Sequence record: PP925838.1
From: Escherichia phage Chlobot
DNA: 46,491 bases
Strand: one strand, 5' to 3'
Shown: positions 16,241-17,944 of the stretch, in pieces
Numbering within the stretch: the first letter of the stretch is position 1
Layout: every line of letters begins with the position of its first letter
The notes under the pieces: generated by a model
What the model was told of the DNA's origin: nothing
The model's input: the letters and a program-made list of their open reading frames with translations, nothing else
The model's database searches: none
Made by a program: the position numbers and the translations under genes

Positions 16241-16855
16241 ATGAAAAAATCAATACTAATTTTAGGGCTTACGTTAATTGTCTCATCTCAAATACCATCG
16301 GCAATGGCAAAAAATGAATCAAAACTATGGGTTGTTGTTGATCAAACGGAAAGACATACCTGCCCTTCAAGTAAATGTGGAGTGGCTGGGAAACTATTTT
16401 TCAGGGAAGGCGTAGATTTTCTAGAAAAAAAAGGTGAATGGGTTCGTATAACTGAGCCATATTCAGCCTCATGTGTTGGAGGGGAAAGCGAATATATTAA
16501 AGAAGGTAATAAATCCTGCACAAGAAAAAATGGAATCGTTAATGGCAAGTTTTCAGAATGGGTTAAACTTAGTGATCTTAGCAGTGAAAGGCCATCAGAT
16601 CCTGCTGAAAATGCGAGCGGAGATGATACTTTAATCAAAGGATCTGATGACTACCGTATATACAAAAAAGAGTTTTCTTCGGCAGCTAGGAAGTTAATAA
16701 ATGAAGGGGTCTGCACGGAAAGCGATTTTAAGGAAATCGGAGGGTGGATGGCATCAAGCAATAAGGGTGAAAACATCTATTTCACATATTGCGGAGGAAT
16801 GACGTTGTCGAACAGAATATACCTAGATGTTAAAAGTGGAAAGACTTTTAGATAA
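16241..16855 (+). CDS. Secreted cysteine-containing hypothetical protein (204 aa), AT-rich moron
   Basis: Signal peptide MKKSILILGLTLIVSSQIPSAMA; six Cys in the mature part; AAGGAAA ribosome-binding site; own terminator downstream; low GC relative to flanks. Confidence 0.6.
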   Translation: MKKSILILGLTLIVSSQIPSAMAKNESKLWVVVDQTERHTCPSSKCGVAGKLFFREGVDFLEKKGEWVRITEPYSASCVGGESEYIKEGNKSCTRKNGIVNGKFSEWVKLSDLSSERPSDPAENASGDDTLIKGSDDYRIYKKEFSSAARKLINEGVCTESDFKEIGGWMASSNKGENIYFTYCGGMTLSNRIYLDVKSGKTFR

Positions 16856-16926
16856 TATGATATTACCAATGACAGTATTGATTTAATGCCTCCATAGAAT
16901 TATCTCTAGGAAGTAGGTATAAGAAA

Positions 16927-16962
16927 AGCCCGCACAATGAGCTGCTGCGGGCTTTGTGTTAT
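16927..16962 (+). terminator. Rho-independent terminator after the 204-aa gene
   Basis: AGCCCGCA...TGCGGGCT stem followed by TTGTGTTATT. Confidence 0.6.
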
Positions 16963-17148
16963 TCGCCATATTTTATGAAGCAAATACGACACTATAGATA
17001 ATTAAGCGTTGCTGGTTGTCGATTCCTCAATCACTCCTGTTGATGGCTCTCTTCTTGTATGTGCCATTGAAGGGGAATATCGCGTAAAAAGATACCGGAA
17101 GTATCCGCGCCGCCATGATTGTCTTTCTCCTGATGCAGGAAAAGCAGA

Positions 17149-17487
17149 ATGGCTAAATCAGCAACAGAGCACAAAGCCGATCAGAGAGCCAAGCAAGCAT
17201 CATCCGGTATGCGTAAGCTGGAGCTTGTACTTGATGCTCAGGAAATTGAAATGCTGGAGCGTAACTGTGCCACGCGTCGCTTCAGGCGTGCGCCTTGCGA
17301 GTTTGGTGAGTACATCGCGTTACTGAGCCGCCAGGATGATGCACGTGTGCGCTGGCGTATAAAATCGATCAGCAGAAAACGGTGCGGTAAGTGCGGCGAG
17401 AGAGTTCCTGTTAATTCATGCCCGTGTAATGGTGACTCACAATGCTGGGTGACCAAAGGCTGGCACGAAACAAAATTAATGATATAA
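17149..17487 (+). CDS. Hypothetical protein with C-terminal Cys-rich zinc-ribbon-like motif (112 aa)
   Basis: AGGAAA ribosome-binding site 8 nt upstream; N-terminal basic/helical segment (LELVLDAQEIEMLERN) and C-terminal CGKCGERVPVNSCPCNG. Confidence 0.5.
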   Translation: MAKSATEHKADQRAKQASSGMRKLELVLDAQEIEMLERNCATRRFRRAPCEFGEYIALLSRQDDARVRWRIKSISRKRCGKCGERVPVNSCPCNGDSQCWVTKGWHETKLMI

Positions 17488-17515
17488 ATCTCTGTGACAT
17501 GTCACGGAGGCGGCA

Positions 17516-17944
17516 ATGAAATTAGACCAGCAATATCTAAAAGATCTACTTATCGCATTCGAAAAAACTCGTGGCCCTGACACGATGCTTAGTGAACTAG
17601 AGGATAATGGCTTTAATAGATATGACCAAGATTTTATTTTCCATATGCGATTATTATGTGACTACGAATTAATAGTCAGGGTTGATGGAAAACCTGGGTT
17701 CGGTCATATATTGTCCAAAGCGTTAGGGGAAGGTGTTGGATATAGTTGGATCGAAGTACCACTGAGGTTGACAGCAAGAGGGCATGATTTTATTGCTGAC
17801 TTACGTCAAAAGGATGTCTGGCAAGCTATAAAAACAAACTTTAAGGATGAGGGAATTAGTACACTTATGAGTGTTTCAAAATCACTAGCAAAAGGCTTTG
17901 CAAGGAAAAAGATAAAAGATATTACAGGAATAGATATTGAATAA
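17516..17944 (+). CDS. Hypothetical protein (142 aa), AT-rich moron
   Basis: ORF with GGAGG ribosome-binding site; followed by its own terminator; no domain recognised. Confidence 0.55.
   Translation: MKLDQQYLKDLLIAFEKTRGPDTMLSELEDNGFNRYDQDFIFHMRLLCDYELIVRVDGKPGFGHILSKALGEGVGYSWIEVPLRLTARGHDFIADLRQKDVWQAIKTNFKDEGISTLMSVSKSLAKGFARKKIKDITGIDIE

Follow-up and report, generated by a model that had tools for sequence, protein, structure and literature searches.

Escherichia phage Chlobot (sequence record PP925838.1) is a lambdoid phage whose genome of 46,491 nucleotides (nt), hereafter the window, is in the vegetative order and, relative to the standard lambda map, reverse-complemented. The subject of this analysis is the region between the TraR-like gene orf73 and xis, where three open reading frames (ORFs) on the + strand, here called g1, g2 and g3, code for proteins of 204, 112 and 142 amino acids (aa), respectively. 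An earlier note, made from the sequence alone, had placed three ORFs here, and its coordinates for them (Table 1) are correct.

Alignment with lambda showed that the backbone is 97.5% identical over 12900–19700, a single substituted block excepted. Homology to lambda ends at ~15989, within ea22, and resumes at ~17981, just upstream of a hairpin at 17989–18008. Between these breakpoints, ~0.77 kb of lambda has been exchanged for ~2.0 kb, and the only losses relative to lambda are ea8.5 and the 3′ half of ea22. The block had been said to replace ea22 and ea8.5, which is accurate for these lost parts, but a frameshifted 5′ part of ea22 remains. No homology of g1, g2 or g3 to either lambda gene was found, in agreement with the earlier view that the three are unrelated to them.

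The contents of the interval from orf73 to orf55/xis differ among related phages. Lambda carries ea22 and ea8.5, while ev099 has ea22 and an LprI-family (lysozyme-inhibitor-like) gene (L019:3670–4368), 434 has two membrane-protein genes on the opposite strand (L020:3005–3781), and Chlobot has a different set again, as expected for the variable cargo slot that had been proposed. Because of the LprI gene of ev099, the membrane proteins of 434 and g1, the cargo of this slot appears to be repeatedly envelope-directed. The accessory genes between exo and xis of lambda (orf60a, orf63, orf61, orf73, ea22 and ea8.5) occupy the same slot in the pL-driven early-left operon, are non-essential, and vary as a set among lambdoid phages; published work describes genes of this region as pL-transcribed accessory genes. 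Unlike them, the cargo here is derived from phages of the P1-like and epsilon15-like kinds. The block is not flanked by direct or inverted repeats, and a transposon-like unit was rejected on this ground. A non-coding RNA was also rejected, Rfam giving no match at E ≤ 1 over 15400–19800.

Table 1. Features of the substituted block and its surroundings (window coordinates)
Feature	Position	Strand	Basis or description
exo	14059–14739		landmark
orf73, TraR-like	15473–15694		landmark
ea22 remnant	15691–16105	+	Pfam Ead_Ea22 1.3e-20; lambda alignment; marked as frameshifted by RefSeq
g1 upstream leader	16099–16240	+	~92% column identity to P1/P7-like contigs (L035/L036)
g1	16241–16855	+	exported-type protein, 204 aa: predicted signal peptide 1–23, SH3b ~27–110, Cys-containing alpha/beta C-terminal domain ~125–204
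g1 terminator	16925–16962	+	GC-rich hairpin between A-tract and T-tract; fold −18.9 kcal/mol, z = −2.9
humD/umuD-like internal fragment (S24 peptidase gene), pseudogene scar	17006–17116	+	HumD residues ~46–82; 88–92% nt identity to P1-like phages D6 and PhiR41_1; tblastn with HumD
ninX (DUF2591) 3′ tail, scar	17091–17156	+	overlaps g2 start; 90–92% nt identity to ninX 3′ ends of TL-2011b and lambdoid phages
g2	17149–17487	+	112 aa, epsilon15 gp49/phiV10 p55 family (phrog_536); predicted ribbon-helix-helix domain and C-terminal Cys zinc ribbon
palindrome	17490–17509	.	20-nt extended form; core GTGACATGTCAC at 17494–17505
g3	17516–17944	+	142-aa DUF2513 protein (phrog_585), probably winged-helix type
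hairpin and T-run of the lambda backbone	17989–18016	+	follows ea8.5 in lambda; lambda alignment
xis	18235–18453		landmark
int	18431–19501		landmark

The g1 module

P1/P7-like phage-plasmid contigs, which come from E. fergusonii and a related sample, match the stretch 16099–16857 at 84.6% nt identity. There, g1 directly follows an intact humD, and the same region encodes a theta-subunit homologue, a Cre-like integrase, a C1 repressor and a Tad2-like protein. Both the leader (140 nt) and the terminator of g1 are common to these contigs and the window, the terminator being homologous to that behind g1 in P1-like elements. As its hairpin is flanked by an A-tract and a T-tract, this terminator is probably bidirectional; it also scored on the − strand. 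The leader begins, in the P1-like context, with a promoter-like site (TTGACT-18-AAGAAT) that is severed by the junction in the window. By this comparison, g1 was acquired separately, as a unit that includes a terminator of its own. Beside g1 on the opposite strand, one of the P1/P7-like contigs (L035:4956–7774) encodes a Tad2-like (PF11195) protein, a dUTPase and several unknown proteins; the locus in the P1-like donor may in turn be a hotspot for anti-defence genes or cargo.

The g1 protein belongs to phrog_8310 and has ~80 relatives. Those in Pseudomonas and Aeromonas are 60–69% identical, and the two contexts examined were a genomic island beside an integrase and a prophage; tblastn in the GenBank phage collection gave zero matches. 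That g1 is secreted and contains cysteines, as had been suggested, is consistent with the signal-like N-terminus MKKSILILGLTLIVSSQIPSAMA read from the sequence (MKK, a hydrophobic core, and AMA directly followed by K) and with two invariant cysteines in the C-terminal domain, which are probably disulfide-bonded. The AlphaFold2 (AF2) model had a predicted local distance difference test (pLDDT) score of 89, with low values over residues 1–24, and distant relatives have a lipobox (Cys) in place of this signal.

The N-terminal domain of g1 was found to have the SH3b fold. The Pfam SH3_3 profile scored 16.2 bits on g1 of the window, under its cut-off of 27, and matched 18/18 members of the g1 family with a best E-value of 5.9e-8; the g1 profile searched against PDB sequences returned only spurious designed TIM barrels and weak SH3 matches. 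Such domains bind the cell wall in endolysins, lysostaphin and NlpC/P60 hydrolases, from which g1 differs in that no recognisable catalytic domain was found and in that its C-terminal 80 residues lack a conserved Cys-His pair. We would expect g1 to be exported to the periplasm and to be held on peptidoglycan through the SH3b domain, while the C-terminal domain would act on an envelope target, the likeliest role being protection or exclusion at the cell wall.

g2, g3 and the palindrome between them

At the nt level, g2 is 90% identical to the gene that immediately precedes the small terminase gene (terS) in the epsilon15-like phages TL-2011b, ZX5 and phiV10; the phiV10 homologue, p55, is annotated as similar to epsilon15 gp49. 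The family (phrog_536) is small, with 174 clusters at 50% identity, and is found in phages of E. coli, Salmonella, Citrobacter, Klebsiella, Cronobacter and Edwardsiella. Both the basic N-terminal helix and the Cys-rich C-terminus that had been read from the sequence were borne out. The AF2 model of g2 had a pLDDT of 93, and its predicted strand-helix-helix core resembles the CopG/Arc/MetJ ribbon-helix-helix proteins TacA, KacA, CopG, NikR, ParD and Arc; the closest structural neighbours are antitoxins such as TacA, KacA, ParD and MazE. The basic arm together with the strand-helix-helix pattern gave a weak match to the YbfE-like CopG family, in which the ‘LexA regulated protein’ has a similar N-terminal arm. 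Two of the C-terminal cysteines, C79 and C82, are invariant, and C99 is nearly so. On the model, g2 most likely binds DNA and combines a ribbon-helix-helix domain with a zinc ribbon.

A TraR/DksA zinc finger was considered for g2 and rejected. Lambda Orf73, encoded 1.5 kb upstream, belongs to these RNA polymerase-binding proteins, and g2 shares with them a helix followed by CxxC-G-x2-(L/I)-P, which weakly matched the profiles of TraR and YbiI (E = 0.065). The idea came from such weak matches to PDB profiles and was not borne out when g2 was compared with the hallmarks of these proteins, which are a CxxC-N17-CxxC finger, an acidic N-terminal helix and a Pfam zf-dskA_traR match. Searches of the g2 and g3 profiles against PDB sequences were uninformative.

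g3 matched the Pfam family DUF2513 (PF10711; phrog_585) over the full profile (1–100 of 100) at 42.5 bits, above the curated cut-off of 29.6, and 16/16 relatives also matched the family. This family has no known function: the literature reports none for DUF2513, which is mentioned in passing in a single paper, and holds nothing on epsilon15 gp49 or on the RefSeq protein accessions. Weak winged-helix matches suggest that g3 is probably a protein of this type, and it would act alone as a nucleic-acid-binding protein. Its homologues are found among varied neighbours in accessory regions of the nin-like or early-left type, and tblastn in the GenBank phage collection gave just two matches. The statement that none of the three products was recognisable is thus superseded, all three having been assigned to catalogued families.

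Cronobacter epsilon15-like prophages contain g2 (60% aa identity) and g3 (61%) side by side with the same 28-nt spacer, just before terS, while g3 copies that stand alone in Citrobacter and Serratia still have a decayed g2 3′ end upstream. The shared spacer and these remnants indicate that the ancestral unit was g2-palindrome-g3. g2, the palindrome and g3 are one pre-assembled cassette and not two independent morons.

The palindrome itself is strongly conserved. The 12-base-pair sequence GTGACATGTCAC lies at the g2 stop codon or ≤8 nt past it in all contexts that were examined. Perfect copies are found in the E. coli composite, TL-2011b, ZX5, Cronobacter, the nin region of a Salmonella lambdoid phage, and Edwardsiella, and in 75 of the 76 untruncated IMG/VR loci, while the phiV10 copy has one mismatch. 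The core occurs once in the window, where its extended form is a near-palindrome overlapping the GGAG ribosome-binding site of g3. Since GTGACATGTCAC has been kept although the synonymous divergence (dS) between g2 genes exceeds 1, the palindrome is under selection. A short perfect palindrome next to the gene adds to the likeness of g2 to ribbon-helix-helix proteins, and the simplest reading of its position is that it is a candidate binding site of g2. The g2 dimer would then recognise GTGACATGTCAC at the end of its own gene and control the expression of what lies downstream, which is g3 here and, in epsilon15-like phages, the terminase/late region. In ZX5 (L012:5301) and in one Cronobacter prophage (L010:8600), GTGACATGTCAC was seen a second time in perfect form, just downstream of the large terminase gene (terL), and therefore the palindrome brackets terS-terL in these two.

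A further proposal is offered tentatively, and we regard it as doubtful: g2 and GTGACATGTCAC might be a previously undescribed, self-contained regulatory cassette that is portable between phage families, in which the ribbon-helix-helix/zinc-ribbon protein, bound just past the gene that encodes it, gates the transcription or translation of the genes downstream. In epsilon15-like phages these would be the terminase and late genes, and elsewhere they would be cargo such as DUF2513.

A quite different arrangement could be imagined for two adjacent genes separated by 28 nt, of which the smaller, DNA-binding one comes first, namely a type II toxin-antitoxin or abortive-infection pair with g2 as antitoxin and the DUF2513 protein g3 as toxin. 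The antitoxins among the structural neighbours of g2 fit this idea, but obligate co-occurrence was not observed. Most copies of g2 have no adjoining g3 (TL-2011b, ZX5, phiV10, and Salmonella and Edwardsiella prophages), g3 is found alone in Citrobacter and Serratia, and in two E. coli chromosomes (L037 and L038) a stop at g2 codon 40 stands beside an intact g3, which would be lethal if g3 were a real toxin. Furthermore, g3 resembles winged-helix proteins and no toxin fold, and PADLOC (see below) gave no match. A toxin-antitoxin pair is therefore highly improbable and was rejected.

Composition, expression and independence of the three genes

The GC contents of g1 (0.379) and g3 (0.364) are both at about the 3rd percentile of the window, whereas that of g2 (0.504) equals the window mean of 0.504. 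The description of the island as AT-rich therefore applies to g1 and g3 but not to g2. Terminators of their own had been assigned to g1 and g3. This is right for g1, while the hairpin at 17989–18008 belongs to lambda and not to g3, because lambda homology resumes upstream of it and lambda has the same hairpin after ea8.5. g2 has no terminator of its own here. A search for sigma-70-like promoters on the + strand over 15400–18500 found none, so that g1, g2 and g3 are probably expressed mainly from pL under N antitermination.

These results bear on the view that the three genes are AT-rich morons that were acquired independently and form self-contained transcription units, with functions in anti-defence or host takeover. 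Several observations would suit it: lambda-like phages differ in what the slot contains, both g1 and g3 are AT-rich (g3 having a lower GC content than its surroundings in every host), g1 has its own terminator, and in the P1-like donor a Tad2-like gene shares the accessory region with g1. Such morons would need a promoter of their own that is active in the repressed prophage, and here the donor's candidate promoter has been cut by the junction; with no + strand promoter detected, autonomous expression of the moron type is not supported. Moreover, g2 has the composition of the backbone and moves with g3 as one cassette, and the hairpin after g3 is that of lambda. A defence or anti-defence function found no direct support either: PADLOC (PADLOC-DB v2) returned no match at E ≤ 1 for g1, g2, g3 or orf55, and a defence system was rejected on this result. 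Separate acquisition thus stands for g1 and its terminator, but not for the pre-assembled g2 and g3, and three self-contained morons are an unlikely description of the block.

Gene remnants, natural variants and assembly of the block

Two gene fragments that the earlier note lacked lie between g1 and g2. The first, a humD/umuD-like piece, is labelled ‘DNA repair protein, incomplete’ in RefSeq. The second is the 3′ tail of ninX, which was carried in together with g2. In related loci the humD remnant is of different lengths, covering residues 1–82 in L057, 33–80 in L055 and L072, and 46–82 in the window. This series indicates that the humD′-ninX′-g2-g3 block is older and that other cargo, in this case g1, was inserted upstream later. 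A different ORF of 214 aa was seen upstream of the humD remnant, at the position equivalent to that of g1, in a sister phage without g1 (L055:1520–2164).

A match to the ninX tail (17091–17140) lies, inverted, at 5153–5202 on the − strand in the nin region of the window, within the ORF 5137–5520 (− strand). It was seen indirectly, through the equivalent stretch of L056/L057, which aligns at 90% over 50 nt. Part of a ninX-like 3′ end thus seems to be present a second time in this phage, as a short inverted copy. To the left of the block, the ea22 remnant starts with a lambda-homologous ORF of 83 codons (15691–15942), cut off by a +1/−4 frameshift and followed by a variant C-terminal reading frame up to a TAG at 16103–16105; RefSeq annotates it as a frameshifted ea22-like pseudogene. 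The lesion (15910–15945) consists of a +1 insertion and, 30 nt on, a 4-nt deletion, the net change of −3 restoring the frame after an in-frame stop. The same lesion was present in the RefSeq genomes examined.

The cargo genes are dispensable, as natural variants show. g1 is missing from L055–L057, and g3 and the palindrome from L072 and L073. In a 97% variant found in E. coli chromosomes (L037 and L038), g2 has the stop at codon 40 and orf55 an internal stop, while g1, g3, xis and int are intact and the 28-nt spacer holding the palindrome is identical to that of the window. The full composite was present, at 97–100% identity and always as one block beside xis-int, in 129–142 of 5,426 complete E. 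coli genomes; among these occurrences are heavily degraded prophages at the lambda attachment site and plasmid-borne remnants. On two large E. coli plasmids (L017 and L018; pABWA45_1 and another of 304 kb), the composite and xis-int lie between Rac-like genes (trkG and an rrrD fragment) and Dps/ArsR genes.

All three families have many homologues and are under purifying selection. The ratio of nonsynonymous to synonymous substitutions (dN/dS) of g2 is 0.09–0.29; for g1 and g3, dS is saturated and dN is 0.12–0.48. Within the lambda-context lineage, the corresponding polymorphism ratio (pN/pS) of g1 is 0.18.

Could the block simply be recombinational debris without a current role, its intact ORFs merely undecayed so far? 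Pseudogene scars do lie all around (the frameshifted ea22, humD′ and ninX′), the sister lineage has stops in g2 and orf55, some variants lack g1 or g3, and g3 is only loosely constrained within the lineage, as given below. Debris would not, however, be expected to show the low pN/pS of g1, intact g1 and g3 in every variant examined, an unaltered palindrome-bearing spacer in the 97% variant, or retention of the whole block in so many genomes, the degraded and plasmid-borne remnants included. We consider debris quite improbable.

The reading that we favour, with a probability of about 0.6, is that the window from 15990 to 17980 consists of cargo modules that were acquired separately and stacked in the variable early-left (pL) operon slot through illegitimate recombination with two or more other types of phage. 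The older block would be humD′, ninX′, g2, the palindrome and g3, whose g2-palindrome-g3 core would be the cassette also found just upstream of terS in epsilon15-like (Uetakevirus-type) prophages. Later, the leader, gene and terminator of g1 would have been inserted upstream from a P1/P7-like phage-plasmid, shortening humD′ further. The mosaic make-up of the block, the origins of its parts, the domain assignments, palindrome conservation and the dispensability of the genes are shown by the data, while the biochemical roles are all inferred.

Several points weigh against this reading or against the roles that we infer for the three proteins. The permuted order, in which g1 precedes humD′ and not the other way round as in P1-like elements, does not follow from any single simple event. 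An operator at the 3′ end of the regulator's own gene would be unusual. The C-terminal domain of g1 has no structural match in the PDB or BFVD, and PADLOC, NCBIfam, PDB sequence searches and the literature yielded no experiment or annotated homologue that gives a function for g1, g2 or g3. Within the lambda context, the pN/pS of g3 is 0.4–0.7, based on few substitutions; because of this value and the pseudogenisation of g2 in the sister lineage, the contribution of g2 and g3 in this phage may be small.

The finding is one of ordinary phage mosaicism involving three uncharacterised but already catalogued families, and the association of g2 with its palindrome is the one mildly novel element. 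Current understanding is not overturned, and no defence or anti-defence role is demonstrated. What the block provides is a nearly base-by-base record, with graded natural variants, of how the exo-xis slot of lambda gains and truncates cargo from unrelated temperate phages, namely P1-like phage-plasmids and epsilon15-like podophages. It also yields testable hypotheses for three widespread families of ‘hypothetical proteins’, the DUF2513 family of g3 among them: g1 would be a periplasmic peptidoglycan-binding protein on mobile elements of Escherichia, Pseudomonas and Aeromonas, and g2 a ribbon-helix-helix/zinc-ribbon protein with a ready-made candidate operator.

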